Positions 2,419-57,538 of a stretch of DNA of 64,000 nucleotides are shown piece by piece. Numbering within the stretch: position 1 is the first letter of the stretch; each line of letters begins with the position of its first letter. The translations under genes and the position numbers were made by a program. Below the pieces are notes generated by a model. That model was not told the DNA's origin. It saw only the letters and a program-made list of their open reading frames with translations, and searched no databases. Source of the DNA: a virus (Duplodnaviria; Caudoviricetes); IMG/VR virus record IMGVR_UViG_3300029928_000003. One strand, written 5' to 3'.

Positions 2419-2503
2419 GCCACCATGGTGGAATCGGTAGACATGAGGGACTTAAAATCCCTTGGTCATTGCGACCGTGTGGGTTCGAGTCCCACTGGTG
2501 GTA
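2419..2503 (+). tRNA. tRNA-Leu(TAA)
   Basis: GCCACCA/TGGTGGT acceptor, loop CT-TAA-AA, long variable arm, GTGGG-TTCGAGT-CCCAC. Confidence 0.95.
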
Positions 2504-2605
2504 CAATGTGTAGTAAGGCTATATAATTATTGTGAAATAATTAATTAGTCAATAGTTATTGTGATTGATAAAAAAAGAGTGCTATTGTGATAATAGTACT
2601 CTTTT

Positions 2606-2668
2606 GCTTTTAATGCTACTATCAATATGATAAGAGTTCCAAGTCTCTATAAAATGCAGAGGAAAAGT
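2606..2668 (+). ncRNA. twister ribozyme (type P1)
   Basis: P1 GCTTT/AAAGT, TAA, P2 TGC/GCA, P4 AGAG/CTCT, pseudoknots TCC/GGA and AC/GT, conserved GA. Confidence 0.85.
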
Positions 2669-2704
2669 AACAAGATTAAATAAAAATAAAAAAAACAAAC
2701 AAAA

Positions 2705-2998
2705 ATGAACAGCTTAATTAAGGTGAAAGTAGAATTTAAGAACAATGGAAATCCAATAAATGTTCAAGACATTTTTAAAGATTATCCACAACTTAAGTGG
2801 TATCTTGATGACTTTATGAAAGCCAAAGATAGTTTTATTTCAAAAGCCGAAGTTGTGGATAATCAAGTCCGAGACTGTGATATACGTAATGCACTCTTGG
2901 ATTGGTCAGTTAATGAAAGGGAGTCTGACAAGCTCTTCAAAATTGACCCAAAAGGGTTTCAATTTACATATACATTCTTATGTTATGTAGATTGTTAA
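2705..2998 (+). CDS. hypothetical protein
   Basis: 97-aa ORF after an A-rich leader, downstream of a twister. Confidence 0.75.
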   Translation: MNSLIKVKVEFKNNGNPINVQDIFKDYPQLKWYLDDFMKAKDSFISKAEVVDNQVRDCDIRNALLDWSVNERESDKLFKIDPKGFQFTYTFLCYVDC

Positions 2999-3092
2999 AC
3001 GCATTTAGGAATAAATAGTTTGTCATATATAAAATAAAACATATGAAATTATATAATTTTTTAAGTAAACATATCACAACCATATACTGGTT

Positions 3093-3338
3093 GTGTATAT
3101 CTTATTGTATAGTATTTATTTTAGTAGGACTTTTACATGTTTTATTAAAATGAAGAATTACAAACTATATAGTCCTGGTGATGAAGTAATTATCATTAGG
3201 ACACATAAAGATGACTTAAATAAAAAAGGAATAATCATAGAAGTAAATTGTTCCTATTGTAAAATCAAAATTGGAGACAAAGTATATAATCATACTTATG
3301 CCCAATTTAAAAAAGTTAATAAAAATGAAAACGATTAA
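3093..3338 (+). CDS. small KOW/SH3-like protein (start probably ATG at 3150)
   Basis: PGDEVIII...KKGIIIEV pattern. Confidence 0.5.
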   Translation: MYILLYSIYFSRTFTCFIKMKNYKLYSPGDEVIIIRTHKDDLNKKGIIIEVNCSYCKIKIGDKVYNHTYAQFKKVNKNEND

Positions 3339-3488
3339 ATATATTGGGCAGCTACTATTAATGGTATTTGGAATTGTAGTAATGACTATTAGTATGTACT
3401 TCTTAGGAGCTGCCTTAAACATTATATGATAAATATTTTCGTTGCAATAGGTTGTTAATACGGTCTGTGATAGATAGTATTAATGTTT

Positions 3489-3562
3489 GTTCTAATAACT
3501 CAATTGGATAGAGTAACACTCTTCTAAAGTGTAAGTTGTGGGTTCGAGTCCCACTTAGAACA
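3489..3562 (+). tRNA. tRNA-Arg(TCT)
   Basis: GTTCTAA/TTAGAAC acceptor, ACACT-CTTCTAA-AGTGT anticodon arm, canonical T-arm. Confidence 0.95.
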
Positions 3563-3695
3563 CAGATGCGTTAAGGATGTTAATTATTTTTGTTTTATAA
3601 AATATTATGTTATTGAGAAATAATATATGGTTAGAGAATTTTATAATTTTTCGTGAATTAAAAAGTGTTATGTTATTGTGAAATAACATAACACT

Positions 3696-3761
3696 GCTTT
3701 TAATGTAGCTTATCTTTATAAGATAAAGAGTCCAAAGCCTCTATAAATACAGATGGAAAGT
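3696..3761 (+). ncRNA. twister ribozyme (type P1)
   Basis: P1 GCTTT/AAAGT, TAA, P2 TGT/ACA, P3 TTATCT/AGATAA, P4 AGAG/CTCT, pseudoknots CCA/TGG and GC/GC. Confidence 0.9.
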
Positions 3762-3796
3762 TAACAAGATTATTAATTAAAAAATAAGAAATCAAG

Positions 3797-4045
3797 ATGA
3801 AAAAGTATCCCAGAACATCAACAATTGAAATTGATTGCGACCCTTGTACAGGTATGGGTCGTCAACAAAATCATTATGAAGCTATTTGTAAGCTTCTTAA
3901 TGTGAAGCCAGAACCAAGAATATCTGCTTTCTTTGGTTGCTGGGAATGGCCAATAACTTATAAAACAGCAGAAGACGAAGCAAAAGCCAAAGAGTTTTTG
4001 ACAGACCTATATAACTCTGGGTTATGTCGATACGCTTCTTGGTAA
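3797..4045 (+). CDS. hypothetical protein
   Basis: 82-aa ORF downstream of a twister. Confidence 0.75.
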   Translation: MKKYPRTSTIEIDCDPCTGMGRQQNHYEAICKLLNVKPEPRISAFFGCWEWPITYKTAEDEAKAKEFLTDLYNSGLCRYASW

Positions 4046-4087
4046 AATATATTTAATTAGTTGGATTCCTTTTTTTAATTTAAAATT

Positions 4088-4354
4088 ATGAAACATTATA
4101 TAGATTTAGAAGAAGTTTTAAAAAACTACACAGAAGTAGTAGTTCTTTCTTATGGTTATATGCAGTACAATCGCATATTTGGAAATCATTATGAACCATT
4201 TGCTCATAAAAGGCAAATTAAGTTTACTATTTCTAATGGAGAATTTTATAATCCTACATTTGAAATAGATGATTTACACCCAGAAGATTTCTATTTTTAT
4301 ATAGAAGATGGGGTTGTTTATGTAGACGATCCTGATATTTGTTGTTATGAATAA
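4088..4354 (+). CDS. hypothetical protein
   Basis: 88-aa ORF. Confidence 0.7.
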   Translation: MKHYIDLEEVLKNYTEVVVLSYGYMQYNRIFGNHYEPFAHKRQIKFTISNGEFYNPTFEIDDLHPEDFYFYIEDGVVYVDDPDICCYE

Positions 4355-4366
4355 AAAATTAGTAAA

Positions 4367-4756
4367 ATGAAAATATTAAAAATAAAATTTGAAAATAAAG
4401 TAAGAGTTAATAATACATATATTGAGTTTTTATATGTAAAAGACGATGATATTCTTTATTTATTAAAGGAATCATTAAATAAAAACTTTAGATATACTGT
4501 AATTAAAAAACTTGAAAATATTGATACAGTATCTAGAGATTTTATTAAAGAGATAGCACCTGCAATTGATGAAACTTTTAAAGCTAAAAAGGTATTTAAT
4601 GCATTATGCAGACCCAATACAGTTTTTGAAGTATTAGTAAAAGATAGCTATAAACCTTGTTTTAATATCGTAGGTTATAGTGAAAATGGTGTTTTAGTTA
4701 CTGTAAATCAATATTATGAATACAAGTTTGAAAACGATAATTTAGTTGTTAAATAA
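4367..4756 (+). CDS. hypothetical protein
   Basis: 129-aa ORF followed by a terminator. Confidence 0.7.
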   Translation: MKILKIKFENKVRVNNTYIEFLYVKDDDILYLLKESLNKNFRYTVIKKLENIDTVSRDFIKEIAPAIDETFKAKKVFNALCRPNTVFEVLVKDSYKPCFNIVGYSENGVLVTVNQYYEYKFENDNLVVK

Positions 4757-4761
4757 ATTAT

Positions 4762-4794
4762 GGGCATACTTTTTAGTATGCCCTTTATTTTTTT
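4762..4794 (+). terminator. Rho-independent terminator
   Basis: GGGCATACT-TTTT-AGTATGCCC followed by a T tract. Confidence 0.8.
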
Positions 4795-4798
4795 AATT

Positions 4799-5101
4799 AT
4801 GAAATATACTATTGAAAATTCTTTTTATGAAATTAAATGTGTAGTAAATTCTATTGCAAATATACAAGAAAAGGTATTTCTTATTAAAACAGATAATGAT
4901 AACTATGCGAATGTGAAGAATGATATTTTATCTATTATAACGCAAATAGTAGGATATAAACCTATTTCTAAAAAGAGATATGATATGCTAAATAGGTTTA
5001 AACCTTCTTTTGAAAACTATTTAAGAAGATATTATAAACTTAGATATAATAAAGATTTAGAATCTTATATATTTACAATAATTATTCCTATAGATAAATG
5101 A
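4799..5101 (+). CDS. hypothetical protein
   Basis: ORF 4760..5101; start moved to the ATG after the terminator. Confidence 0.6.
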   Translation: MKYTIENSFYEIKCVVNSIANIQEKVFLIKTDNDNYANVKNDILSIITQIVGYKPISKKRYDMLNRFKPSFENYLRRYYKLRYNKDLESYIFTIIIPIDK

Positions 5102-5352
5102 ATTCAATAACAATCAATGAGAAATTCTATATAATATTAGATGAAACTCATAAATATAATGATGAGATAGATAAGGTGGAAAATAATTATATTCTTTATA
5201 AAGATAATGCATTATTTAATGCTTATAATCAAACTTATGAAGAATGTGAATTTTCAGATAAAGGTCCAATAATACTTTCTATGGAATCTAAATTTAATAT
5301 TTATAAAATAATAGACGGAGTTTTTATTCCCGAAATAGAAAAATATCTTTAA
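5098..5352 (+). CDS. hypothetical protein
   Basis: 84 aa, ATGA overlap with the previous gene. Confidence 0.65.
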   Translation: MNSITINEKFYIILDETHKYNDEIDKVENNYILYKDNALFNAYNQTYEECEFSDKGPIILSMESKFNIYKIIDGVFIPEIEKYL

Positions 5353-5359
5353 TTAAAGA

Positions 5360-5391
5360 TTTGTAAAATTACATTAATTATAATAAATTTG
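5360..5391 (+). promoter_or_regulatory. Bacteroidota-type -33/-7 promoter
   Basis: TTTG-N20-TAAATTTG matches the TTTG / TAnnTTTG consensus. Confidence 0.7.
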
Positions 5392-5447
5392 TTATTAGAA
5401 TTAATTTTTTTAATATTAAAAATAATAAATTAAATTTTTAAAAAACT

Positions 5448-5615
5448 ATGAAAAAAATATTTTTTGCGGTAATTGCCGCTAGTTTATTTATGGTATCTTG
5501 TGGTAATACTAATAAAGCAAATACGGTTAAAGATACTACGATTGTTGATACAGCTAATGTAGATTCTACAATGATTGATTCTCTTGCTGTAGATTCTGCA
5601 TCAGCAGTTCACTAA
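5448..5615 (+). CDS. small lipoprotein (55 aa) with repeated D-S/T motifs
   Basis: MKKIFFAVIAASLFMVSCGNTNKANTVKDTTIVDTANVDSTMIDSLAVDSASAVH; signal peptide II with VSC lipobox; below the ORF-track cutoff. Confidence 0.85.
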   Translation: MKKIFFAVIAASLFMVSCGNTNKANTVKDTTIVDTANVDSTMIDSLAVDSASAVH

Positions 5616-5664
5616 TTTAATATTCTGTTTTCTTAAAAGTTTCAGTAAAAAACTTTTAATTTTA

Positions 5665-5736
5665 GCTCTTGTGGAGTAATGGTTAGCTCGTCAGATTTTC
5701 ATTCTGGAAATTTGGGTTCAATTCCCAACAAGAGTA
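5665..5736 (+). tRNA. tRNA-Glu(TTC)
   Basis: GCTCTTG/CAAGAGT acceptor, TCAGA-TTTTCAT-TCTGG, T-loop TTCAATT. Confidence 0.9.
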
Positions 5737-5802
5737 CTTTTTGTTTTCCATTTTGATTGTTGTTTTATTATTATTCTTACTAGTAATTAGTAGGAATAAT
5801 AT

Positions 5803-5875
5803 GCGGAAGTAGCTCAGTTGATAGAGCATCAGCCTTCCAAGCTGAGGGTCGCGAGTTTGAGCCTCGTCTTCCGCT
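5803..5875 (+). tRNA. tRNA-Gly(TCC)
   Basis: GCGGAAG/CTTCCGC acceptor, TCAGC-CTTCCAA-GCTGA; T-loop is TTTGAGC rather than TTCGAGC. Confidence 0.92.
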
Positions 5876-5878
5876 CTT
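5859..5878 (+). repeat. 20-bp direct repeat, copy 1 (tRNA-Gly 3' end)
   Basis: GAGCCTCGTCTTCCGCTCTT identical to 11491..11510. Confidence 0.95.
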
Positions 5879-5915
5879 GTTTAATATATAATAATTAAAT
5901 TTATAATAAACGGAG

Positions 5916-6353
5916 TTGTTAATTCCCGCAATTCATGAAAAACTGAATAAGGTTTATGCAAAACACTTTGAAATAAACGTGTTGAAACCTAAAATACTTC
6001 CTAAAGAAGCTTATTACGCTCCAAGAAATCGCTATTTATCAAATGTTTTATTACGTGATTTGAATTGTAATTCCAAGACCTATATCATATACGCATAAAG
6101 ATGTATCCCACAAAATACACGGAAGTAAAAATTATGGGATTGACTCCTTTAGGCGGAAACAAATCTATAGTGTCCGATTATAGATGCAAGGGAAACTCCT
6201 TTATTGCGGTCATAATTCATGAATTTGGACATGGCTTTTATAAGGCATTGTTCTAATCCTAATTGCATAATGTGTGATTACCAAAAACATAAAGGAAAAC
6301 CTTTTGTTTTTATCACCAATTTATGCACGCAACAGACTTCTCTGATTAACTAA
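5916..6353 (+). pseudogene. frameshifted archaemetzincin-like (M54) zinc peptidase
   Basis: Fragments in different frames: AYYAPRNRY; VIIHEFGHGF; HCSNPNCIM...LC, matching the HExGHxxxxxHC-x4-CxM signature. Confidence 0.7.
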
Positions 6354-6661
6354 TATATCTATACGAGCGATGGTAATTGTATAAAATCTAAAAAGTATGG
6401 TAAACTTAGAATCGATTGTTTAGTAATAGGTCTCATTTACTGTATCTTTTAGATATTATATTTACTCTATCTTCATAGACTAAGTAAATAACTATTTATT
6501 AATCTTTTAAAATTTAAATTAAAAATGAAACAAGTAAAAAAAGCAATTAAATGGTATTTAATGAATGTAGAAAAATCTTATGTAAGTCTTCCTGATGGAA
6601 CATTTCCTTACTTTTATATTCATTAAATAAGAAACAATGTTAGAATATATAATTCTAACTT

Positions 6662-6716
6662 ATTGTAATGCTAGCATTGAAGGTTACAACTCCTTATGAA
6701 AAAAGCAGAGTACAAT
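6662..6716 (+). ncRNA. twister ribozyme (type P1, no P3)
   Basis: P1 ATTG/CAAT, TAA, P2 TGCT/AGCA, P4 AAGG/CCTT, pseudoknots TAC/GTA and AG/CT, conserved GA. Confidence 0.8.
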
Positions 6717-6747
6717 TAATTTTCGTTTAATTAAAAAATTAGTAAAG

Positions 6748-7020
6748 ATGAGACATTTAAGTATTTTATTATTTCTTTTAATGGGTTTTTCATTAAGTTC
6801 CCAAACTTATAAAATTCAAGGTAATAATATTATATGTATGCAGAAAGTAGATAAATTAACTTCTTTTACTTATCAAGATAAAGATGGTACAATTTATCCT
6901 GTATATATAAATAGTAAAGGTAAGTTTTACATTAAAAAGATTTCTAAGAAGACTGGTAAAGAATATAGATATTATCTTCCTAAAGAAATTCAAGAACAAT
7001 TAAATCAATTATATAATTAA
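6748..7020 (+). CDS. secreted hypothetical protein
   Basis: N-terminal signal peptide; C-terminal KISKKTGKEYRYYL. Confidence 0.75.
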   Translation: MRHLSILLFLLMGFSLSSQTYKIQGNNIICMQKVDKLTSFTYQDKDGTIYPVYINSKGKFYIKKISKKTGKEYRYYLPKEIQEQLNQLYN

Positions 7021-7024
7021 AAAT

Positions 7025-8329
7025 ATGCCACAAAGAGGATATTTTGTTTCTCCTAGAGATGGACGAACATATAAATATGGACAATAGGTAACTATTGGTA
7101 ATAAAGTATATCAAGAGAATTCAGACGGATCTCGTACTCTTATTAGATATTCTAATGGTACTCCTAATTACGATCTTACCCCTACTGGTTCTTATATAAC
7201 AAGAATAGAAAACCCAGATAGCGCGGGCTATGTTAATGGACGTTGGTATAATAAAGCCTATACTGATAAACATAAAAATGGCCCGCGTGTTTGGGATTCT
7301 AATTAGATAGGAATAGGTATTGACACAAGAGAAAATAATAATCCAGTTGTACAATAGTATTTACGAAATACTGGTCAATATAAATATATTAATGAAGATG
7401 ATGAACATTTTGTAAGGCAAAGTACTATTAAAGAAAAAGATGACACTCTTAATAGATTAATGAGAAAGTATAATATTAATATTAACTTATCTCCTAATAA
7501 GAGAGCTATGGCTTTAGGTATGATATATCAAGGACTAGCTAATCAATTGTTCAATCCTAAAACCCCATTAGCAAGACAACTTCAAAATGCTTTTACTAAT
7601 GGTACCGATAAACAATTTGCAGATTCTATAACAAATTTCTATAATGTATTCTAGAATGGTAGATTTCGAGAAAGAGCAAAATAGAATCAAGAATATTGGA
7701 GTACCAGACTGTATAATGGCGGTAAAATTAGATAGTTTTAGACTGGGGGAAAATCTCCAGAATAGAGTGCTGTAAATAGAGCACAGTCTCCTTATGGGGA
7801 ATATTATAAAGCATAGGATGTTAATGAAAGTATACCATGGTATATTTCTCGTGCAGCAGCTAGATATATAAAAGATAATATTGCTAGTTGGTTTCCTTCG
7901 GGAGTATCTAATTGCACTTTAACTGCTACTCATTGGGTAGATCCTGAAAATAATCTTATGAGAGCCGCAAGTATTTGGAATAATCCTAATAATTATAATT
8001 ATAGTCAAATACCTTCAGATATTGCGATTCCGGGCAATTTAATAATTGCCCAAAATCCATCCAATAAGACTTTTCATACTATGATGATAAGTGGCTTTGC
8101 TGATAAAGATTACCAGTATAATTTTCATGGAAATAAAGTATATCCTGTACATAAAGGAGATATATTAGTAAATTATAGTCGTGGTGGAAATAATCAAAGT
8201 GATTTTGTAAATAACATACCTTTATCAGTTTACTTAGATAATAGCGAAGGGAAGAATAAAATTAGATATTATAGGTACAACTATCCAGATTCTGTATTAT
8301 TAAATGAAATTAAAATTACTCCTCATTAA
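7025..8329 (+). CDS. TAG-recoded 434-aa protein; putative lysozyme-like plus CHAP/NlpC-P60-like domains
   Basis: Single frame ATG to TAA with 9 in-frame TAG and no TAA/TGA; joins track ORFs 7460 and 7958; motifs IENP...IGIGID, NCT...HTMM, GGKI-RQFQTGG. Confidence 0.8.
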
Positions 8330-8332
8330 AAT

Positions 8333-9940
8333 ATGACTAAAACAAAATTAATAAATAAAAAAGAATCTATACAATTCAATTTACCTAATGGTACTAAATC
8401 TCCAGTATTTAAAAATGGGGATGAAGCAGCTGAATGGTATGTACAAAACTTTCCTAGAACTGGTTATCATATAACCACTTAGCAACCCCTTTCCCAATAG
8501 CCGAATAATCCTACAGTAACTTTACCAGAGATTACTGTATATCCTAATGTGGCAGCTAAAAAATAGGCAGAAGAAGATCAGAATAATAAAGAGTAGATAA
8601 TTAATGGTAATTATTTCGGCCATAAATTTACCCCTACAGAAGCTAATATTAATTATTATTTAAACTTATATGATAAAGATAAATAGGTTCATAACGCAAC
8701 TGATTCTAAAGAATGGGCTAAATTTGCTTTAGCTAATGCCGTTACAGGTGCAGGTCTTTATGGTATAGGTTCTGCTGTATTAGCATCTCCTACTTTAACT
8801 ACTGTCGGTAAAATAGGGGCTGATATTGGTTTGGGTTATGTAGGAGGAAAAGGAGTCGATTAGACTTCTAAAGCTATTACTGGAAAAACTTTTGGTTAGA
8901 ATTTAGGTGATGCAGTAACTAATAATACTTCTCTTGCATTGACCCCTGAATTAGCTGACATGCTTAATCCTGGATATTTACTTGCATTTAATAATGTTTA
9001 TGGATTAAGAAATAAAGCATTATCTTATTTCAAATCTAAATCACCAGAACTTAAAGCTATAGGTAAAACTATGGAATTTAAAACCGAGAATACAGTAGGT
9101 TCTGAAATGTTTGAATCTCCTAATATTTGGAATATTTCGGAGAAACATTAGAGGGCTTATCCTGTTGAAGTAAATAAAGCACTTCCAATATATTTACAAA
9201 AGCCAGCATTGGATGCTATGCGTAAAAAATATATTTTATTCATGAAAGTTCCTATTAGATCTAAAATTCCAGAAGTAGATGATTTGGCTAAGGCACTTAC
9301 TTAGGTTAGAGGGCGTGCAAAAAGTTATTACTAGTCTAGAAAATATAGAAAAAAATTCAGATAGTTTTTAGAAGATAATGCACTTAATAAAGATCTTGAA
9401 GGCACCTATATTCATAGTATAGAAGATCGTTTAGATACTAATCCTACTATGTTAGGTATGAGCTCAAATATTTTGACGCAGGGGGCATAGATGTATCATG
9501 GGGCAATGATAAGCCCTTATAGATTTCATAATAATTTTGTTACTCCTTTTCATGAATATGCACATGCGGCTAATTAGTTCGGTACTTATAATCCTACTAC
9601 TAAGTAGATTGAGATAATTGATCCAACTAGAGATTTAATACAAGATTATAATAAAAAAATGATACAATCATTACCTATTAATCCAGAATTTGATACAACA
9701 TCTAAATATTGGAAATATGTAATAAATGAAAAGGAAGTGGCAGCAAATATGTTGCCTTTGCAAATATTCATGGAAGACCACGGTTATTCTCCAAAGTAGA
9801 TGGTTAATTTTCTAATTAAAAATAATTTTTTAGATAAAAACGCATATAAATACTATTATAATGCCTTAGGTAAAGATGGGCTTACTACTTTAATAGAAAG
9901 AACATTGAAAAAAGGCGGTAAATTAACTAAAAAGAAATGA
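8333..9940 (+). CDS. TAG-recoded 535-aa protein with Gly-rich hydrophobic segment and C-terminal zincin domain
   Basis: Single frame ATG to TGA with 15 in-frame TAG; HEYAH at 9551-9565 and downstream E-x2-A; ends KKGGKLTKKK. Confidence 0.85.
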
Positions 9941-10095
9941 TAACATATAACAATACATCAGAACAAAGAAAATTTCTTGAAAAATATTTAAAAGAACAAG
10001 AAGAATATAAAAGAAAATTGGAACAATATAAAAAAGATAAAAAGGCTGGGAAAAATCCTGACCCGTCTTTTATAATTAATCATACAGTAATTTAA
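9937..10095 (+). CDS. 52-aa charged protein, TAG-free (candidate immunity protein)
   Basis: ATGA overlap with the zincin gene; fills the gap exactly; all three Gln codons are CAA. Confidence 0.65.
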   Translation: MITYNNTSEQRKFLEKYLKEQEEYKRKLEQYKKDKKAGKNPDPSFIINHTVI

Positions 10096-10097
10096 TT

Positions 10098-11390
10098 ATG
10101 CCAACTATTTTATCAGATAACACTAGAGTACAATAGTCTGTAATAAACCCTTATGTAGGAAATTTAAAAAATCAATTAAAACCTAAAGATATTAAAAAAA
10201 TGTCTTTACCCATATAGGCTACGTATGCTCTTTCTAAAGCAATTAATAATAATAAGAAAAAAAGATTAGTAGTTCGTTCTAATACAAAACCACAAGAACC
10301 TGCAGATAATACTAGAGTACAATAGCCTATAAATATTGAACATAGAACTGATAAAGAATAGTTGTAGCATGACTACCCTCAAAACGCACCAGTTTCAGAT
10401 CCTATAACAACTGGTATTAATTATTCCTTACCTGTTATAGGCACAGCGTTAACTGCTGTTGATTTTTATAACGGTCTTAAGGATATTAAAAATAACGGTT
10501 TTAACTTAAATAATACAACATAGACATTTCTTGCAGGTGTTCCATTTTTATCAAAAATGGGTGCTATTACTAAACCTTACAGAATAGGGGCTACAAAGAG
10601 AGCTTTGGAAACGGTTATGAGATCTTCTGGTTTTGGGACTCCTTTTCCAGCAAGATTGGAGCTAAAAGATATAGTACATACAGACCCCTCCAGGCTTATC
10701 CCATTAGCAGCTTATACTCTTACAGGAGCTAGAATAGGCCCTAAAGGATATTATAACTCACTTAATGATTTTACAAAACATCCAGGTCACCATTTTTATA
10801 ATCCTAAAGGAAAGGTACGGTATTATACTGGATTCAGCGATCGTCCGGATAACGATCTTTCTTTTAGATTTCTAAATTAGAATGATATGGTAGATGCTTT
10901 TTTATATAATAAAAAGATATGTCCTTGGTATGGATATGAAAGGACTAATATAGGGGATAATTTTGGAATTCATGCTGATTATATTGCACAAAAATATGCA
11001 GATAAAGCAAGTGATATTCCAGTATATGAAGGTGCTTATAGATCTTTCTTAAAGGTTAGAGATAAACCAAAAATTATAGGTTCTGATGGTAGTAATGATG
11101 GATTCCCACGGATAAATAATACTTAGTTAGATGCAGGAGGACATCTTGTAGAAATAGGCGACTTAATAGGAGATAAAGTATATCGTTATTAGGATATTTG
11201 GAAATTTAACCCTGAAGACTATCTAAACAGATGGGGTCGCCGAATGGGTTTAACATCTAGTGCTCTTAGAAAATATATATCTTACGAGGGTTTAAAATTA
11301 GTTGATAAATTAGGTACACCCGTTATTACTAGAACTCCTTGGAGTTATATAGAAGATATGTCCAAACTAAATAAGTTATATTTTCCCTAA
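10098..11390 (+). CDS. TAG-recoded 430-aa protein (effector/cargo-like)
   Basis: Single frame ATG to TAA with 9 in-frame TAG; joins ORFs 10557 and 10887; duplicated DNTRVQQ; LPVIGTALTAVD segment. Confidence 0.82.
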
Positions 11391-11442
11391 TATGGCTTTA
11401 CCAGAAATATTTAATACAAAATAATTAGATGAAAGATAAGAT

Positions 11443-11507
11443 GATTCGCTAGCTCAGCTGGTAGAGCACAACACTTTTAATGTTAGGTTCGAGCCTCGTC
11501 TTCCGCT
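11443..11507 (+). pseudogene. chimeric tRNA: 5' part of tRNA-Lys(TTT) fused to the 3' end of tRNA-Gly
   Basis: Intact D arm and CAACA-CTTTTAA-TGTT arm; variable loop and 5' T-stem missing; 3' end equals tRNA-Gly and cannot pair with GATTCGC. Confidence 0.8.
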
Positions 11508-11510
11508 CTT
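11491..11510 (+). repeat. 20-bp direct repeat, copy 2
   Basis: Identical to 5859..5878. Confidence 0.95.
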
Positions 11511-11574
11511 TAATTACAGTAAATATTATATTAAATATCTTCCCGATATAAATTTAAAAAAATAATCTAGTATT

Positions 11575-11646
11575 TGCCTTATCGTATAATGGGTATTACA
11601 CAAAATTTTGGATTTTGTAATCTAAGTTCGATTCTTAGTAAGGCAA
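11575..11646 (+). tRNA. tRNA-Gln(TTG)
   Basis: TGCCTTA/TAAGGCA acceptor, CAAAA-TTTTGGA-TTTTG, CTAAG-TTCGATT-CTTAG. Confidence 0.92.
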
Positions 11647-11662
11647 CAATTTTATTAACTTT

Positions 11663-11696
11663 ATCCCTGATTAGGTCGCTCTAGTCAGGGATTTTT
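11663..11696 (+). terminator. Rho-independent terminator
   Basis: ATCCCTGATTAG/CTAGTCAGGGAT followed by T tract. Confidence 0.8.
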
Positions 11697-11711
11697 AATT
11701 TATATACTATT

Positions 11712-12107
11712 ATGAAAATAAGAATTAATTTAATGAAGTTTAAGCACAGTGATAAAACCACTGTATGTGTAATTAAATCAGAGTATTGTATAGATTGGAA
11801 TGAAGCAAACACTCGTGGTAATATTAATGTAGCAAAACAATTAAATGTAACACAACGTAGTCTAAATGGCCTTGAAGTTGTTGTTACTGCTAGAACTACT
11901 TGTAAGTCTCCTGATAAATTTGATAAGGTATTAGGAGAACGCATTGCAGAAAGTAAAGCTAAAATTAAATTAGGTAAAAAATTAAAAAAGATTAACGATA
12001 TCTTTAAAGAAAGTTTAGAAACTTCTATAGATATACTTACAGAAAATGATACTAAATTTAATAGATTTATTTCTACAGAAAAAAAGCATTTAAATGATCT
12101 CAAATAA
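11712..12107 (+). CDS. phage protein with C-x3-D-x-F-x4-G motif
   Basis: TTCKSPDKFDKVLGERIAESKAK. Confidence 0.75.
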   Translation: MKIRINLMKFKHSDKTTVCVIKSEYCIDWNEANTRGNINVAKQLNVTQRSLNGLEVVVTARTTCKSPDKFDKVLGERIAESKAKIKLGKKLKKINDIFKESLETSIDILTENDTKFNRFISTEKKHLNDLK

Positions 12108-12510
12108 TGATTTACAGAAGCTTAAAGAATGGGCATCAGATAAAGAATTTACGTTACCTAATGGCCAAATATTATTAGCATCTGATTTTATAAATAAAAA
12201 GATATTTGATCATCATAATTGGTTTACTTCTTGGTTAATAGATAGATTACAGCTTTCTAAATTACTTAACCCAAATTTTCTTATAATATATCCGGATATA
12301 TTGATTGATTTTGGATTTAGATTTTCATCATCTTTTAATGGATTTAGATATAATTTCAAAAATGGATATGTAATAGCTAGACTTTTACCTAAAAATGAAT
12401 GGATGTTTCAAATATTTGATTCTGAACACAATACTTTAGGTACTATCTATTTACAGAGAGTAGGCGCGTTTAATAAGTTTTTTAAGTTTTTAAAAGAATG
12501 GCTAAGATAA
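12094..12510 (+). CDS. hypothetical protein
   Basis: 138-aa ORF, overlapping operon layout. Confidence 0.7.
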   Translation: MISNNDLQKLKEWASDKEFTLPNGQILLASDFINKKIFDHHNWFTSWLIDRLQLSKLLNPNFLIIYPDILIDFGFRFSSSFNGFRYNFKNGYVIARLLPKNEWMFQIFDSEHNTLGTIYLQRVGAFNKFFKFLKEWLR

Positions 12511-12698
12511 ATAATAATGAGATTGAAGAGTATATAGATGAAGAATTTACTCGCTCATATACTCCTGGAGCTTATAATTATTTTGAGAAGTACTGTGATG
12601 CTTGCGATAATTTTAAAACTCGTAATTGTCCTTTTAAAAGAATAGTTACGGAAAATACTCGTTGGCAAGATTTAAAGTGTAATAATTTTAATGATTAA
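12498..12698 (+). CDS. small Cys-rich (putative Zn-binding) protein
   Basis: CxxC...CP...C. Confidence 0.65.
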   Translation: MAKINNNEIEEYIDEEFTRSYTPGAYNYFEKYCDACDNFKTRNCPFKRIVTENTRWQDLKCNNFND

Positions 12699-12704
12699 AT
12701 AATT

Positions 12705-12992
12705 ATGTGGGCAGAAGATCAAGATTGGTATGGATTGGAAGAACTTATTAATGATGATTTATTTCATTATGAAGGACTTAAAACAATTCAAAAAGTAGTT
12801 AAAACAAATACTTGGGTAGTTCAAGAAACTATTGTTTGGGAAACTAAAAGTGGTGAATTACTTAGTATTACTGATATGGAAACAAGTCATATCAAGAATT
12901 GTATTAAACTTATTAAAGATCATAATTGGAGAAGAGTTTATCTTCCAATATTTATTCAAGAATTAAAAGATAGAGGAGAATGGAACAGTTAA
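12705..12992 (+). CDS. hypothetical protein
   Basis: WETKSG...ITDMETSHIKNCI, a pattern common in phage proteins. Confidence 0.75.
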   Translation: MWAEDQDWYGLEELINDDLFHYEGLKTIQKVVKTNTWVVQETIVWETKSGELLSITDMETSHIKNCIKLIKDHNWRRVYLPIFIQELKDRGEWNS

Positions 12993-13159
12993 TTGTATTT
13001 GATAGTGCAGAAGGAACTCTCACTATTTATAATGTAAAGAATTATCCTATTTTAGATGAACCAAATATAGATATGGATGAAATCCTAACTCAATTTGGTT
13101 TTGATCCAACATATTGTACTACAATGTGGAGTAGAGATACTAATATTGAAATAAGATGA
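12980..13159 (+). CDS. 59-aa protein, paralog of 32917 and 44994 genes
   Basis: MEQLIVFDSAEGTLTIY...EILTQFGFD; fills the gap with overlapping start and stop. Confidence 0.7.
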   Translation: MEQLIVFDSAEGTLTIYNVKNYPILDEPNIDMDEILTQFGFDPTYCTTMWSRDTNIEIR

Positions 13160-13698
13160 TAGGTACACATAATTCAATGACGTATCTTAAACCTAGAACT
13201 TGGTGGATGCGTTTAGTTAATAGATGGGCAAAATGTCAAGATAAAACATTAGAAGAACAATTAAAATCTTATAAGTGTTTTGATTTTCGAGTATTTTATT
13301 ACAGAGGGAGTTGGTGTTTTGCACATGGCTTTTGTGAATATACTAGTACGACTATTTATCAAGCTTTAAATAAAATTGAAGAGCTTAAAGGTAATCATAC
13401 TATATATGTAAGACTTATCTTAGAAAAATCTGATGATATGTCAAGTGCTTTTGTTAATCTTTGTAAGAAGTTAGAAACTCAATATTCTAATATTAATTTC
13501 TTTGGTGGCAATAGAAAGTCAGATTGGAAGAAATTATATACATTTAGTACTGGTATATCTGATAATAAAGTTCATCAATATGTATCTTCTATGCAACCTT
13601 GTAGTAAATTAATTACTCCAAGAGAGTATGCTAAAAAACATAATGAAGAAAATTTAAAAAAGTTATCAAAAGATATTGATTTATTCGATTTTATATAA
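13156..13698 (+). CDS. PI-PLC X-domain-like phosphodiesterase
   Basis: GTHNS, CQ..TLEEQL, FDFRV, FAHG motifs. Confidence 0.8.
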   Translation: MIGTHNSMTYLKPRTWWMRLVNRWAKCQDKTLEEQLKSYKCFDFRVFYYRGSWCFAHGFCEYTSTTIYQALNKIEELKGNHTIYVRLILEKSDDMSSAFVNLCKKLETQYSNINFFGGNRKSDWKKLYTFSTGISDNKVHQYVSSMQPCSKLITPREYAKKHNEENLKKLSKDIDLFDFI

Positions 13699-13943
13699 TG
13701 GAAAGAGATATTTTAATATGTTCTTGTGGAAGTCCTGAACATCAAATAATTGTTAGTTATTTAAATAACCAAGTGTATTTAACAATACATTTGGTTAGAC
13801 TTCCGTTTTTTCAAAGATTATGGAAAGGTATTGCATATATCTTCGGGTATCGTTCTAAGTATGGAGCATTCGATGAATTTATCTTAGATAAAAATGACTC
13901 AGATAAACTTCTAAAAATTAAAAAATATTTAGATGAAGTTTGA
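13698..13943 (+). CDS. hypothetical protein (CxC-x3-H)
   Basis: CSCGSPEH; RLWKGIAYIFG. Confidence 0.75.
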   Translation: MERDILICSCGSPEHQIIVSYLNNQVYLTIHLVRLPFFQRLWKGIAYIFGYRSKYGAFDEFILDKNDSDKLLKIKKYLDEV

Positions 13944-14340
13944 TATTGATCCAGTTCTTACCTTAGACTTAAAAGATGATATATTTATGAATTATGATAA
14001 ACATCTTTATGAGTTCTTAGGTAAGAACGTTTTAAATGCTTTCTATTTTGGATTAATTATAAAGAAAATATTTGATAAATTAGAACCAGAGCAACAATAT
14101 CTATATTCTAAAGAATTAAGGCATTTAGTAAGGGATATTGAACAATATAATTCTCAAATCCAATACTGGACTAAAAAATATGCCAATAAAGATTTATTTA
14201 AAACTATAGAAGATATTTATAATAATATTATATGGTTTCCAGATACTGAAGATATAGATAAAATAAAAGTTGCTTTATTTTTAGCAATTACAATTGAATC
14301 GGCAATAGATGAAGACAAAATCTTACCAAGTTTACACTGA
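13933..14340 (+). CDS. hypothetical protein
   Basis: 135-aa ORF. Confidence 0.7.
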   Translation: MKFDIDPVLTLDLKDDIFMNYDKHLYEFLGKNVLNAFYFGLIIKKIFDKLEPEQQYLYSKELRHLVRDIEQYNSQIQYWTKKYANKDLFKTIEDIYNNIIWFPDTEDIDKIKVALFLAITIESAIDEDKILPSLH

Positions 14341-14728
14341 TGGGGCTTATTCTTCTTTAAGAGATCAAGGTGGAGTAGGATTAGTAGTACTTAAAGATAA
14401 TGAAAAAATATTATCATTTTCTCATAATTATAAACATACTACTAATAATCAAATGGAATTATTAGCAATCATAATTGCATTAGCTACTATTAAAAAACCA
14501 ATTGATAAACTTATAATCTATTCTGATAGTATGTATTGTGTTGGTTGTATTACTAAAAATTGGAAGCGTAAAAAGAATCCAAAATTATGGAAAGAGTTTG
14601 ATAAACAATATTTAAGAGTATCTTCATTGTGCCCTAATATTATATTTCAACATATAAAAGGACACAATGGAGATACTTGGAATACTTATGTAGATAAATT
14701 AGCAAATAAAGCAAGTCAATTATTATGA
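14309..14728 (+). CDS. rnhA: ribonuclease HI
   Basis: YTDGA, TTNNQMEL, YSDSMY, HIKGHNG..N..VDKLA. Confidence 0.95.
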   Translation: MKTKSYQVYTDGAYSSLRDQGGVGLVVLKDNEKILSFSHNYKHTTNNQMELLAIIIALATIKKPIDKLIIYSDSMYCVGCITKNWKRKKNPKLWKEFDKQYLRVSSLCPNIIFQHIKGHNGDTWNTYVDKLANKASQLL

Positions 14729-14961
14729 ATATAGATAATACAATTCGTGATATATTGGAGAAATATGATTTTAATAAGATAATGAAGCTTATTAATATTG
14801 AATTTCCTAATATAAAAGTATACGAAATAATGATGTATACTTTATTACTTTTAGAACAATCTAAAGATATTAATTGTGATATTGAATCATGGTTTAATGA
14901 TAAGATTGTAATACAAGTAAATTATAGTGATAAATACATATTAATACACGTAATAATATGA
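14725..14961 (+). CDS. hypothetical protein
   Basis: 78 aa, ATGA-coupled. Confidence 0.6.
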   Translation: MNIDNTIRDILEKYDFNKIMKLINIEFPNIKVYEIMMYTLLLLEQSKDINCDIESWFNDKIVIQVNYSDKYILIHVII

Positions 14962-15377
14962 AATTAAATAATAGAGAAATATCTGCAATTGCAGATAAAG
15001 TTTATAATGAGCTAAGTAATGAATATACTATAGAATTACAAAGAGTAATTCACGAATATATTCCAAGTGCTAAATATATTAATACTCAAGAATTAATTGA
15101 AGAAACTTTAGATATTGCTAAAGAATATAATCAACTATTACAAAGATGGGGTGAAATTAGAAGAGAACTTAATTTAGGATGCTATTATGATTTAGATAAT
15201 ATAGAAAGAGATAGTGATAAAATTCTTGAGAATATTATATTAAAAGAACATCCTATCAAAGATATTCCTAGCAAGGATAATATTGTAAATGATATTATTA
15301 TTGCTAATATTGATCCTGAATTTAATGTAGATAATTTTATTAAAGAAGCTATAGAAAAATGGAAGATAAGTTTATAA
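14958..15377 (+). CDS. hypothetical protein
   Basis: 139 aa, ATGA-coupled. Confidence 0.7.
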   Translation: MKLNNREISAIADKVYNELSNEYTIELQRVIHEYIPSAKYINTQELIEETLDIAKEYNQLLQRWGEIRRELNLGCYYDLDNIERDSDKILENIILKEHPIKDIPSKDNIVNDIIIANIDPEFNVDNFIKEAIEKWKISL

Positions 15378-15688
15378 ACAAAGTAAAGAATGTGATTAGT
15401 AGAAAACCATTAAATGCAGAAACAGCATATACATTATCTGTTTATGGACAACGTATGTCTAAAGATAATGTATATCAAAAAAGTATTTCTGATATTGAAA
15501 GTCGTATTGAATTAAGAAGTCAAAATAAAGGTACTTCTATTCTTTATGAATATGATAATAATTTTCCAACTATGGGAGAAGATATTATGAAATACTTTAA
15601 AGATTTAGGTTATATTGTATTAATGATAGATTCTTCAACTTTTAAAGAAATTAAAAATCCTAAATTATTAATTAGTTGGGAACGATGA
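15359..15688 (+). CDS. hypothetical protein
   Basis: 109 aa ending LGY...LLISW. Confidence 0.7.
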   Translation: MEDKFINKVKNVISRKPLNAETAYTLSVYGQRMSKDNVYQKSISDIESRIELRSQNKGTSILYEYDNNFPTMGEDIMKYFKDLGYIVLMIDSSTFKEIKNPKLLISWER

Positions 15689-15945
15689 CTATAGAAGAAA
15701 AAGATTTTAAATTAACTTGTTGTCAAGGTTATTGTTGGGATTTAGAATTATTACAAACTATAAAACCTAAAGGTAAACCAGAACGACAAGAATTTCAAAT
15801 TGAAGGATATTCCATGACTTTAGAAAGATGTTTACAGCATATTGTAAATTATCGTTTAGGTAAAAAACAAAAAACTTATTCTTTAAAAGAATACTTAAAT
15901 CTATATAAACAAGAAGTAGAAAAATTAAAAGATTTAGTAAAATGA
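15676..15945 (+). CDS. hypothetical protein
   Basis: 89-aa ORF. Confidence 0.7.
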   Translation: MGTMTIEEKDFKLTCCQGYCWDLELLQTIKPKGKPERQEFQIEGYSMTLERCLQHIVNYRLGKKQKTYSLKEYLNLYKQEVEKLKDLVK

Positions 15946-16535
15946 AAGTACATATTCAGCATTTACATGATTCTTTTGTAGATTACAAAGGTAAAACACA
16001 TTATTTAACTTTAGTAGCAATTAGTGAAGAACTTCCTATTAAGAATTGTGAATTAAAGAATCCTGTTGAAGAATATAATCCAGATAATGCAGTTACTTAT
16101 GATGTTTGTGAATATTTAGATAACTTTGGATGCCTTAATTATATTGGGGAAGTTGCTAAAGGTTTAAAAATAGGTATTTCTGTTTGTAACCCATTAGATA
16201 AATTTGATCCAGAAATAGGGCTTAAGAGAGCTACTGCTAAAGCAAAACAAAGTAACTATGTATTATTTGTAACAGATAAAGGTCTTATTAATACTGCACT
16301 GGTTACTGCTTTACTTCATCAAGAAGCTGAATTTATTAAGAATAATCCTAATAAGATTATTAAAGGATATAATGAAGCTATGAAGAAATATCAAAAGCAA
16401 CAAGAAGAAATTAGTAAGATGAAAACTTTTAAAAAGAATTTATCTGAAAATGAAAGAATTGCAGTTAAAGTAGCTAAAGAAAATCCAGGATTTCTTCATA
16501 AATTAATGTCTTATGTTGAATGGCTAAAGAAATAA
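15942..16535 (+). CDS. phage protein with C-x3-D-x-F-x4-G motif
   Basis: ISVCNPLDKFDPEIGLKRATAKAK. Confidence 0.75.
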   Translation: MKVHIQHLHDSFVDYKGKTHYLTLVAISEELPIKNCELKNPVEEYNPDNAVTYDVCEYLDNFGCLNYIGEVAKGLKIGISVCNPLDKFDPEIGLKRATAKAKQSNYVLFVTDKGLINTALVTALLHQEAEFIKNNPNKIIKGYNEAMKKYQKQQEEISKMKTFKKNLSENERIAVKVAKENPGFLHKLMSYVEWLKK

Positions 16536-30198: not shown

Positions 30199-31713
30199 AT
30201 GAAATCTGAAACTATCAATAAATTAATTAAACATTTAAAAGCAATTAAAGAAGCTGGAATTACAATTGAACAATATGAAAAAATAAATAATTTAAATTCC
30301 CGTTTTATTATAAATAAAATATATAGTGTTAAAGTAGCTCATGAAGATGAAGCAATATCTGATGATACTTTTAATACTGTAATGAATTTATATGAATCCG
30401 TTAAACAACGGAAGTCTAGAAATTCTGATATTGAAGACACTGATAATCGTTCTGAAGTAACTTTAGATAGAGATGAAAATGGTAAGATAATTCAATATAA
30501 TTTTAGTGTTAATATAAGAGATAAAGCTCCACTTACTGGACATTTTACTAGAGACGAAATGAGTCTTATTTATAGACTTTATTCTAGTTATGGCAGTAAT
30601 ATTACACAGAGAGAAGTATCCAGATTCTTTCCAGAATATTCTCTTTGTGATTTTAAAAGGATACTAAGAACCTTTAATATTACTAAAGCATCTGCGCCAT
30701 TTCCGCAACATATTATAGAAGAGAATGATAAAGCAACTCTCTTAGATATGCAATTTAGAGAGAAAGAAAATGATTTTCTTAAATCTTATGAAGCTGATAA
30801 AGTTAGACAAATGGATCAGCAACTTAAGAAATATATGAAAGAGAATTATGATTTAAAGAATCAAATTCAATCATTTTCTAATATTAATCTAAATCTTACA
30901 GGTGGGGTATCCGTAACACCTAAGCCAAGTAATTCTAAGAAAGATTTATTTATTTATCTTTCTGATATGCACATTGGAGCAAGTGTAGGAGAAAATTCTC
31001 TTTATAATAATACTTATGATGCTAAAGAAGTTCAGAATAGATTAAATAAAATATATAATACTGTATATAATGCCGATGGTTATGATTCTATAATTGTATG
31101 TAATATAGGAGATTCATTAGATGGGGAATATAATCAAACTACCAGAGGAGGACATTATCTTCCTCAAAATATGGATGAAAAGCAACAAATTAAATGTTTC
31201 TTAGAATCTATGTATGGGTTCTTCACTAATTTATCTACTATACCTCATAATGAAATTAAATATTATGCTGTAGGAGAATCTAATCATGGTGGAGTATATG
31301 AATATGCAAGTCAAATCGCACTAAGTAAAGTATTAGATACAATTAATGTTAAAAGTACAGTATGGGATAAGTTTATAGGTCATTTTATACATAAGGGGCA
31401 TACCTATATATGCTCTCATGGAAAAGATAATAAAGATATGTTTAAAAATTGGCCTCTTACTCTCAACGATAAAACTGAAGGTATTATCAACGAATATATG
31501 GATATAAATAATATTTCAACAGCTACTGTAATTAAAGGAGATTTACATCAATCTGCAATTACCTATGGTAAAAGATTTACTTATCGGTCTGTAGGTTCTA
31601 TGTTTGGAAGTAGTGGTTGGATTATGAAGAATTTTGGTAATACTCATGCTGCTTGTGATTATTCAATTGTTGATGAAAATCAATCATTAGATGGGCGTAT
31701 AATACTTAATTAG
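30199..31713 (+). CDS. calcineurin-like metallophosphoesterase with N-terminal extension
   Basis: SDMHIG, GDSLDG, SNHG, SHG, GDLH; extends to 31734 if TAG=Gln. Confidence 0.85.
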   Translation: MKSETINKLIKHLKAIKEAGITIEQYEKINNLNSRFIINKIYSVKVAHEDEAISDDTFNTVMNLYESVKQRKSRNSDIEDTDNRSEVTLDRDENGKIIQYNFSVNIRDKAPLTGHFTRDEMSLIYRLYSSYGSNITQREVSRFFPEYSLCDFKRILRTFNITKASAPFPQHIIEENDKATLLDMQFREKENDFLKSYEADKVRQMDQQLKKYMKENYDLKNQIQSFSNINLNLTGGVSVTPKPSNSKKDLFIYLSDMHIGASVGENSLYNNTYDAKEVQNRLNKIYNTVYNADGYDSIIVCNIGDSLDGEYNQTTRGGHYLPQNMDEKQQIKCFLESMYGFFTNLSTIPHNEIKYYAVGESNHGGVYEYASQIALSKVLDTINVKSTVWDKFIGHFIHKGHTYICSHGKDNKDMFKNWPLTLNDKTEGIINEYMDINNISTATVIKGDLHQSAITYGKRFTYRSVGSMFGSSGWIMKNFGNTHAACDYSIVDENQSLDGRIILN

Positions 31714-31777
31714 TTGTAGAATTAGATAAATTAAAATAAAATTTAAGTAAGTTTAATATAATAATAATAAAAGAACA

Positions 31778-39708: not shown

Positions 39709-39722
39709 TAAATATTAATTCT

Positions 39723-44587: not shown

Positions 44588-45001
44588 ATGAAGACTAAAA
44601 AATTAATTCTTAAAAATACTTTTAGTACAGGTAATCATGGTTGGGGTAATGGGTATGTAGCTGTACCTCCAGAACATCCTTTATATGGTAAATCGTATAT
44701 GGATGAAGATTATCCTGATTTTAATGTACATGGTGGTATTACATTTACAGAACCTGCTGTTTATAATGAAACTACCTTTGTAAGTAAAACTAAAATTAGA
44801 GAGAAATATATAGGTAAGAGAGCATATCAACTACAATATGGCATTAGTCTTGATGGTGAAATACCTGATAATTGGTGGCTAATAGGATTTGATACTTGTC
44901 ATAGTAATGATACTAATCTTAATTGGCCTAAAGAAAGAGTTATTAATGAAACTAATTATTTACAAAAAAGAATAAATAATTTATTTAATAAAAATGAATA
45001 G
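44588..45001 (+). CDS. conserved phage protein
   Basis: GYVAVP..HPLYG, VHGGITF, WWLIGFDTCH. Confidence 0.8.
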   Translation: MKTKKLILKNTFSTGNHGWGNGYVAVPPEHPLYGKSYMDEDYPDFNVHGGITFTEPAVYNETTFVSKTKIREKYIGKRAYQLQYGISLDGEIPDNWWLIGFDTCHSNDTNLNWPKERVINETNYLQKRINNLFNKNE

Positions 45002-45173
45002 TACTGAAGAATTAGTTATAATGGATTACAATACAGGGAGTATTATTATTTGTAAAAACCCACCAGAAGATAAAAATACAGAAGAAATTCTAAAACATTT
45101 AGGCTTAGATATTAATAATTGTACTGTTATGTTCTGTAATAACCCAAAAATTAATTACGTGAACTATGATTAA
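44994..45173 (+). CDS. 59-aa protein, paralog of 12980 and 32917 genes
   Basis: LVIMDYNTGSIII...EEILKHLGLD. Confidence 0.7.
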   Translation: MNSTEELVIMDYNTGSIIICKNPPEDKNTEEILKHLGLDINNCTVMFCNNPKINYVNYD

Positions 45174-57490: not shown

Positions 57491-57538
57491 AATAAGGGGA
57501 AGAATAGCTGCTATAGCTATCCTTCCCCTTATTTTTTT
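57491..57538. terminator. bidirectional terminator between convergent gene blocks
   Basis: AATAAGGGGAAG...CTTCCCCTTATT followed by T tract. Confidence 0.85.

Follow-up and report, generated by a model that had tools for sequence, protein, structure and literature searches.

We analysed a 64,000-nt stretch of phage DNA (Duplodnaviria; Caudoviricetes; IMG/VR record IMGVR_UViG_3300029928_000003), referred to here as the window, and focused on three consecutive + strand genes, A, B and C, that carry many in-frame TAG codons (Table 1). An earlier description made from the letters alone (the sequence-only reading) had placed this cassette in the early tRNA region and had reported three TAG-rich genes without internal TAA or TGA. 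We found the cassette exactly between a tRNA-Gly and a tRNA-Gln gene, and the coordinates of the genes and their 9, 15 and 9 TAG codons were all confirmed. Open reading frames (ORFs) of A, B and C were called with TAG read as glutamine (Gln; code 15), and table 11 served as the standard-code comparison.

The three genes contained no in-frame TAA or TGA in 1,399 codons, whereas the off-frames of each gene contained 14-60 TAA; the frames are therefore open far beyond chance for DNA of ~31% guanine plus cytosine (GC). Under table 11 the A-B-C region yielded only fragments of 123 amino acids (aa) or less. The flanking genes had been described as free of TAG, and this held for 28 flanking + strand genes (6,975 codons), with 0 in-frame TAG against 450 off-frame TAG. 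The share of Gln codons written as TAG was 35% in A, 60% in B and 60% in C, which matches the usage in two large late genes on the - strand (46% and 59%; 57537-63973).

The claim that TAG falls on Gln was checked by alignment and stood. Residue Q365 of C (TAG; motif QDIWKF) was Q in 29 of 31 homologues, and the TAG sites Q189, Q334, Q415 and Q489 of B were invariant Gln across homologues. Full-length homologues were conserved across the TAG positions, and confident AlphaFold2 (AF2) domains ran across them. The hallmark of code 15, namely in-frame TAG only, at Gln, with none in early genes, was thus found here; such recoding of late genes is already established in crAss-like phages (PMC7886860, PMC9523058, 10.1101/2021.08.26.457843). 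We concluded that A, B and C are real genes in which TAG encodes Gln. The opposite reading, that TAG is a true stop and the region consists of broken-down pseudogene pieces or of numerous short genes, would suit the short ORFs of table 11 and a host presumed to use the standard code, but it is exceedingly improbable given the absence of TAA and TGA at 28-31% GC beside dozens in the off-frames, the full-length homologues, the TAG codons on invariant Gln and the folded domains that span them.

Where other + strand ORFs seemed to contain TAG, the codon was either part of a spurious N-terminal extension or among the last codons of the ORF. In the + strand genes at 30199-31734 (TAG at codon 505/511) and 44588-45007 (TAG at codon 138/139), the TAG looks like a real stop. 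A TAA follows a few codons past each of these TAGs, so a code switch would add short C-terminal extensions.

Table 1. Features of the + strand island and its tRNA borders; positions are those of the window.
Feature	Position	Strand	Description
tRNA-Gly(UCC)	5803..5876	+	Left anchor; ARAGORN
24-nt direct repeat, left copy	5855-5878	+	tRNA-Gly 3' end (repeat family D4)
Probable zincin remnant	5916..6256	+	Two short ORFs, out of frame; the second terminates in ...AVIIHEFGHGFYKALF (HEFGH); read from sequence
Segment shared with G002	6495..6719	+	Only within-slot stretch common to relative G002; 89% identical (blastn)
90-aa ORF	6748..7020	+	No TAG; N-terminal signal peptide (MRHLSILLFLLMGFSLSS); ends 5 nt upstream of A
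Gene A	7025-8329	+	434 aa; 9 in-frame TAG, the first at codon 21; N-terminal beta module, lysozyme-like module ~50-236, GG-rich linker, NlpC/P60-like module 243-420
Gene B	8333-9940	+	535 aa; 15 in-frame TAG, the first at codon 50; conserved N-terminal module 1-120, Gly/Ala segment and TGKTFGQNLG...NPG junction 120-215, C-terminal domain with HEYAH...E468
52-aa ORF	9937..10095	+	Hydrophilic, TAG-free; start overlaps B stop (ATGA); abuts C; in all strain variants
Gene C	10098-11390	+	430 aa; 9 in-frame TAG, the first at codon 13; disordered N-terminus with duplicated DNTRVQQ leader, hydrophobic junction SLPVIG (110-115), C-terminal domain ~160-427
Chimeric tRNA-like remnant	11444..11510	+	tRNA-Lys(UUU)-like 5' part joined to tRNA-Gly 3' end
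24-nt direct repeat, right copy	11487-11510	+	Inside the tRNA-Lys/tRNA-Gly chimera
tRNA-Gln(UUG)	11575..11647	+	Right anchor; ARAGORN
Intrinsic-terminator-like hairpin	11663..11692	+	13-bp stem and T run, after tRNA-Gln

We then considered what the three genes encode. The motifs picked out by the sequence-only reading were all present: E62 with C297/H351 in A, HEYAH in B and SLPVIG in C. For A, it had proposed a lysozyme-like part and a Cys/His peptidase-like part, and both folds were recovered by VIA-align and Foldseek from an AF2 model (35-sequence alignment; mean predicted local distance difference test score, pLDDT, 74.7). Residues 243-420 matched the NlpC/P60 chain 8er5_B with a VIA-align Z of 11.4 (root-mean-square deviation 2.9 A over 108 residues). 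All 28 chains that reached Z>=8 were NlpC/P60 or CHAP cell-wall hydrolases, and they included the type VI secretion system effectors Tae3/Tse1 and a diffocin baseplate protein. The residues C297 (SNC) and H351 of this module were invariant in 21 homologues. Residues ~50-236 gave moderate matches to the P22, T4 and DLP12 lysozymes (Z 7.0-7.6 over 141-157 residues), and the top Foldseek match of A was the muramidase bacteriocin pesticin (4aqn_A; E 4e-3, probability 1.0). In this module E62, D65, D91 and D100 were invariant in 13 homologues. A poorly modelled insert of 29 residues separates the Glu from the Asp, and the equivalence of the invariant residues to E11/D20/T26 of T4 was judged by eye, with the loop at 65-92 below pLDDT 50.

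Neither module of A matched Pfam at E<=1 (PF00877 included) or any PHROG; profile search against PDB sequences returned chance matches only, and direct sequence search returned none. The lack of a match to PF00877 suggests that the peptidase lies in a divergent branch of the superfamily rather than in the curated family. With both folds matched and E62/D65/D91/D100 and C297/H351 invariant, A is by predicted fold a divergent two-headed peptidoglycan hydrolase, a T4/pesticin-like, muramidase-like domain joined to an NlpC/P60 endopeptidase-like domain. Homologues of A join the same modules to PF18013 ('phage tail lysozyme'), PF00959 or LysM, and also to two recurrent uncharacterised modules. The lysozyme-like module is paired with NlpC/P60 in the window, with LysM in relative L027 and with another leader in L007, and it stands alone in L028 and L001.

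Gene B had been described as a Gly/Ala hydrophobic segment followed by an HEYAH zincin motif, and this order was borne out. The segment at 131-151 is Gly/Ala-rich, and the C-terminal domain spans 296-535 (240 residues), with the protein ending in KKGGKLTKKK. In 11 sequences, H407, E408 and H411 (HEYAH, residues 407-411) and E468 were invariant, and the C-terminal 240 residues carry LKKGGK at their end. When 1.84 billion representative proteins were searched exhaustively with an HMMER profile, no more than 15 relatives of the domain emerged. No match to B was found in Pfam, PHROG or PDB sequences, profile search against PDB sequences gave chance matches only, and a scan of IMG/VR with B returned none; a Pfam eCIS_core match was sub-threshold (E 0.008) in 2 of 11 members. 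By motif only, then, the C-terminal domain would be metallopeptidase-like and a member of a rare family.

For gene C, the LPVIG segment and the uncharacterised C-terminal domain noted earlier correspond to a conserved segment ahead of the domain and to a fold without a solved match. Residues 1-119 were predicted to be disordered, whereas ~160-427 folded confidently (block pLDDT mostly 85-98). Against the PDB, the best Foldseek E was 0.47 and the maximum VIA-align Z was 3.8 (48,161 chains). Weak Foldseek rows of colicin-M-like and SciW/Rhs type were weighed as a lead towards a lipid-II phosphatase, which was then dropped. The sole match in BFVD was an uncharacterised crAss-like protein, and sequence searches of Pfam, PHROG and PDB returned nothing. 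The C-terminal domain alone is shared by 132 homologues, in which R168, E171, R175, D263, D266, H292, K303, H349, D366 and K369 were invariant or nearly so. This pattern makes the domain look like an enzyme without a relative of solved structure.

Proteins B and C are laid out alike: the N-terminus is variable or disordered, a Gly/Ala junction of weak hydrophobicity follows, and an enzyme-like domain forms the C-terminal part. The B segment at 120-215 matches the stretch that immediately precedes the C-type domain in over 30 homologues of C. Of 120 C homologues, 21 have a second shared element, the leader M(K/R)(I/L)(I/V)PK...(Q)SDNTRV (MKxIPK...SDNTRV), where chance would give 0.4. It opens many otherwise different cassette proteins (P0015, P0031, P0034, L028 4408-5718, L007 6917-7693) and may be a packaging or processing signal.

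Comparison of related genomes showed that the cassette is exchanged as a block. The IMG/VR genome G002 is ~97% identical to the window at 2432-5910 and 11574-15946; identity stops at 5910 and resumes at 11574. Between these points G002 carries a gene of 404 aa with 7 TAG, two small TAG-poor ORFs with multiple transmembrane (TM) segments, a 356-aa protein with a B-type zincin domain behind a different N-terminus, and a 444-aa protein that combines an A-like beta module at its N-terminus with a Gly/Ala segment. A polymorphic array had been predicted, and in this near-identical genome the whole slot is indeed replaced. The more distant L001 (85% identical) keeps the lysozyme part of A together with B, lacks C and has its tRNA-Gln on the opposite side of the cassette. 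In strains with identical A and B, gene C is 430, 367 or 254 aa long: the 367-aa form (L020 11074-12177) has a 63-residue in-frame deletion between the two DNTRVQQ repeats, and the 254-aa form (L024 4448-5212) is frameshifted, with the lengths of A and B unchanged. Gene C is therefore dispensable.

The sequence-only reading had also suggested looking for conserved N-termini with swapped C-termini, and we found them. Residues 5-182 of B are 43% identical to a 511-aa protein of L027 with an unrelated C-terminal half; residues 59-160 of C match a 337-aa protein of L027 that bears another C-terminus; and the 356-aa protein of G002 is a further case. The direct repeat occurs in two copies in the A-B-C variant only, and its right copy lies inside the tRNA-Lys/tRNA-Gly chimera, which marks a recombination joint at the tRNA genes. 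A metagenome-assembled genome of 2.4 Mb (G001) holds the phage in pieces; its contig C87 stops at 3614 and its contig C119 at 10873, so that the assembly breaks at both slot flanks, the pattern expected of strain heterogeneity at the locus. A search for further slot variants through a conserved 180-aa neighbour gene returned only distant phages without the cassette. We concluded that tRNA-Gly and tRNA-Gln enclose an accessory, mosaic island that is prone to recombination.

The island contains several smaller elements. The two short ORFs near its left end are probably a decayed zincin gene, debris of earlier slot contents; they are absent from L001 and G002 and occur in this slot variant only. 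The segment shared with G002 holds a 33-aa ORF (6526-6627) and an AT-rich hairpin (6639-6659), and its counterpart in G002 sits directly upstream of the recoded zincin gene; a role as regulatory leader for the recoded genes is possible. The 90-aa protein is 80% conserved in L001, where it lies upstream of a lysozyme-only A, and is a candidate periplasmic partner or inhibitor of A. A gap of 4 nt separates the 90-aa ORF from A, a gap of 3 nt separates A from B, and the TAG-free and TAG-rich ORFs are packed operon-like; the only strong terminator-like hairpin of the unit follows tRNA-Gln. The ORFs may be co-transcribed with the early genes. ARAGORN did not call the chimera as a tRNA. No multi-TM or lipoprotein ORF was found within 5877-11574, and so no holin or spanin lies beside the muralytic gene.

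The phage itself is a member of the Crassvirales, because the nearest named relatives of its PolA are IAS virus and crAss001 (~45% identity). The window has 27.9% GC. Encoded on its + strand arm are tRNAs, helicases, primase, ligase, PolA and the anaerobic ribonucleotide reductase NrdD (39696-42917), which is split by an intein (Pfam Intein_splicing, residues 458-759). The heavily recoded - strand block begins at 57537. Contigs with an identical gene A span 151.6-153.3 kb, so that we describe a phage of ~153 kb with PolA, a block for virion RNA polymerase (RNAP) and TAG=Gln in late genes. The Zeta group (Yutin et al.) is the better fit on size, PolA and recoding. The Epsilon group was rejected, as it is without DNA polymerase and the transcription/RNAP block (PMC7886860) and this phage has PolA.

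In the reading that we favour, at a probability of roughly 0.5, A, B and C would be accessory proteins of the cargo or ejection type, whose task at entry would be to open murein and to insert into the envelope. It is suggested by the disordered N-termini, the hydrophobic segments in mid-protein, the tail-lysozyme partners of A homologues, the shared leader and the precedent of phages that pack such proteins. As long as no amber-suppressing tRNA-Gln was active, translation of A, B and C would end at codon 21, 50 and 13, respectively. Full-length proteins would then appear late and be packed into the capsid or the tail cargo space, and in the next infection they would be ejected before the DNA. 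Protein A would breach the murein layer, with B and C inserting their hydrophobic segments in the envelope, a mode that parallels T7 gp14-16 or crAss001 gp45. The tRNA genes and the repeated N-terminal modules would serve as homology anchors for exchange between co-infecting relatives. Gene product 16 of T7 carries a murein hydrolase. In crAss001, the cargo space is 5.5 MDa and the cargo protein gp45 has a transmembrane helix at 136-158 (PMC10172136), and multidomain proteins packaged by phages commonly bear lysozyme and zincin domains (PMC5512222). A delay of translation until suppressor tRNA is made has been proposed as the role of late TAG recoding (PMC7886860, PMC9523058, 10.1101/2021.08.26.457843).

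Several points weigh against this interpretation. The three genes sit in the early + strand arm, outside the late structural block, with no late promoter identified, and ARAGORN found no tRNA(CUA) suppressor in the 64-kb window. Virion presence and activity are predicted from sequence and fold for all three proteins; the zincin fold of B and any activity of C are putative, and the segment of B at 131-151 is only weakly hydrophobic (mean Kyte-Doolittle 1.34 over 19 residues). A lysozyme with an endopeptidase would also fit an endolysin, and PHROG 'endolysin' families match extra domains of some A homologues. Finally, a lysozyme-only A homologue in a relative of 155-161 kb (L028 7001-7762) has no TAG and lies among early genes, so TAG gating is not fixed in the family, and the TAG codons could be a consequence of late translation and not its cause.

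Two observations on these relatives may be added. The related recoded phage L007 (a 146-kb contig) has a tRNA(CUA) at 12196-12270, directly after the homologous recoded cassette, and this tRNA overlaps the start of a GIY-YIG ORF. The lysozyme-only gene of L028 has a 63-aa lipoprotein ORF upstream and sigma-factor, RNase H and ferritin genes as neighbours.

The two muralytic folds of A also bear on the main alternative, less probable than the cargo reading, in which the island is an auxiliary lysis module. Here A would be the endolysin, B and C would degrade the envelope with Gly/Ala segments resembling those of signal-anchor-release (SAR) proteins, TAG would hold back their synthesis until the cycle ends, a role already suggested for lysis genes of recoded phages, and the small TAG-free membrane or lipoprotein ORFs of relatives would be holin- or spanin-like. 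Borges et al. (10.1101/2021.08.26.457843) report that recoding in crAss-like phages is strongest in the lysis genes, the lysozyme-like gene of L027 and L028 is directly preceded by small lipoprotein ORFs, and multi-TM and single-TM ORFs lie inside the slots of G002 and L027, respectively. In the window, however, none of the ORFs of the island is holin-like or encodes a lipoprotein: the signal peptide of the 90-aa protein is a plain one, and the 52-aa protein is hydrophilic. The putative membrane partners are not recoded, yet the spanin is among the most recoded genes in Borges et al., who also placed the crAss-like lysis cassette in the structural block. Unlike SAR endolysins, the hydrophobic segments here lie 100-130 residues in, behind long disordered or conserved modules, and a set of 3-5 large mosaic proteins with swapped C-termini, one of them dispensable, would be unusual for lysis enzymes. 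Amidase_2 (PF01510) was not found in G002, but that record is only 60% complete and so is uninformative about a second endolysin.

Another explanation, which we consider unlikely, holds that the island encodes effector-immunity pairs split by code, as with Spackle and Imm of T4 or pesticin and Pim. The TAG-rich genes would encode wall-active effectors that are ejected or released, and the TAG-free exported or membrane proteins would be made early and protect the infected cell when superinfecting relatives bring the same effectors. Pesticin, which ranks first among the Foldseek matches of A, has a periplasmic immunity protein (Pim). In every lineage examined, the recoded genes adjoin small ORFs that lack TAG and encode a signal peptide, a lipobox or TM helices; the 90-aa ORF accompanies the lysozyme module in the window and L001 and is absent from G002, which lacks the module; and rapid turnover of the slot fits a conflict locus. 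Against this, the small ORFs are non-homologous between lineages and vary in where they lie with respect to the enzyme gene, and the co-occurrence is anecdotal, covering 3-4 lineages only. The candidate pairing also gained no positive support for binding: complex prediction for the 90-aa protein with the lysozyme module of A scored 0.00, which speaks neither for nor against binding. Still more speculative, and rather improbable in our view, is a combination with packaging in which the code splits an effector-immunity system in time on one transcript, with TAG-free shields made early and TAG-laden partners made late and packed into virions. If this were true, competition between crassviruses would make the tRNA-flanked slot the site of an arms race, at which the locus diversifies.

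Crassviruses are the dominant human gut phages, yet little has been explained of their passage through the Bacteroidales envelope or of the contents of their large cargo space. The island supplies candidates, namely a two-headed murein hydrolase, a rare metallopeptidase-like family and the C domain with its more than 130 homologues, and it offers a natural test of recoding as a translational timer on a shared transcript. When A, B and the C-terminal domain of C were searched by tblastn against 50,697 GenBank phage records, there was one unannotated match, to C only, and blastn against the GenBank phages likewise left A and B without a match. These families are nearly invisible in annotated phage databases because standard-code gene callers shatter genes of this type. 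The Zeta-group paper makes no mention of such a locus. New within the searched libraries are the separate recoded island inside a standard-code arm, the tRNA-anchored exchange of cassettes between near-identical genomes, the architecture of shared modules with swapped payloads, the three uncatalogued domain families and the interleaved TAG-free exported proteins.

Among known systems, the ejection proteins of podovirus-like phages are late products that are kept inside the capsid or tail and leave it ahead of the DNA (T7 gp14/15/16, N4 gp51/52, P22 gp7/16/20, crAss001 gp45/gp46; PMC10172136, PMC13434306). Some have a hydrophobic or TM segment ~130-160 residues from the N-terminus (crAss001 gp45), and they are partly unfolded or disordered, as here. 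In contrast, A, B and C lie outside the structural block, in a tRNA-flanked slot, are mosaic and strain-variable, and are known from their genes alone; BLAST against the two late proteins of the window gave chance-level matches only. Virion-associated peptidoglycan hydrolases, and endolysins, with GH24 lysozyme and NlpC/P60 or CHAP domains resemble A, which has both folds with the expected Cys/His and a candidate catalytic Glu, whereas A differs in the lack of a Pfam or PHROG match and in the 29-residue insert of its lysozyme module.

Polyvalent proteins (Iyer et al. 2017, PMC5512222) are packaged in virions, combine zincin, lysozyme and uncharacterised domains that are shuffled, and are thought to act on invasion. 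They are single giant polypeptides of 2-15 domains, whereas the island has several proteins of 350-550 aa with one payload each, placed after a common N-terminal or junction module, and the zincin of B was not placed in their MPTase family. Polymorphic toxins (Zhang et al. 2012, PMC3482391) share the conserved N-terminus and junction, the exchanged C-terminal domains and the decayed remnants nearby, and the small ORFs adjacent to the genes here could be protective. The island differs in being phage-borne, without a link to a secretion system, and its identified payloads are cell-wall hydrolases only. No Pfam pre-toxin or toxin domain was detected in A, B or C, and the 'toxin' label of the sequence-only reading is too strong, as the enzymology that can be read is that of cell-wall breaching.

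Lastly, phages that use code 15 (Yutin 2021, PMC7886860; Borges 2021, 10.1101/2021.08.26.457843; Peters 2022, PMC9523058) are alike in carrying TAG at Gln in a subset of genes while their replication genes stay standard. The recoded genes of crAss-like phages form one contiguous unit in Borges et al., whereas those described here form a separate island that lies in the standard-code arm together with TAG-free ORFs.

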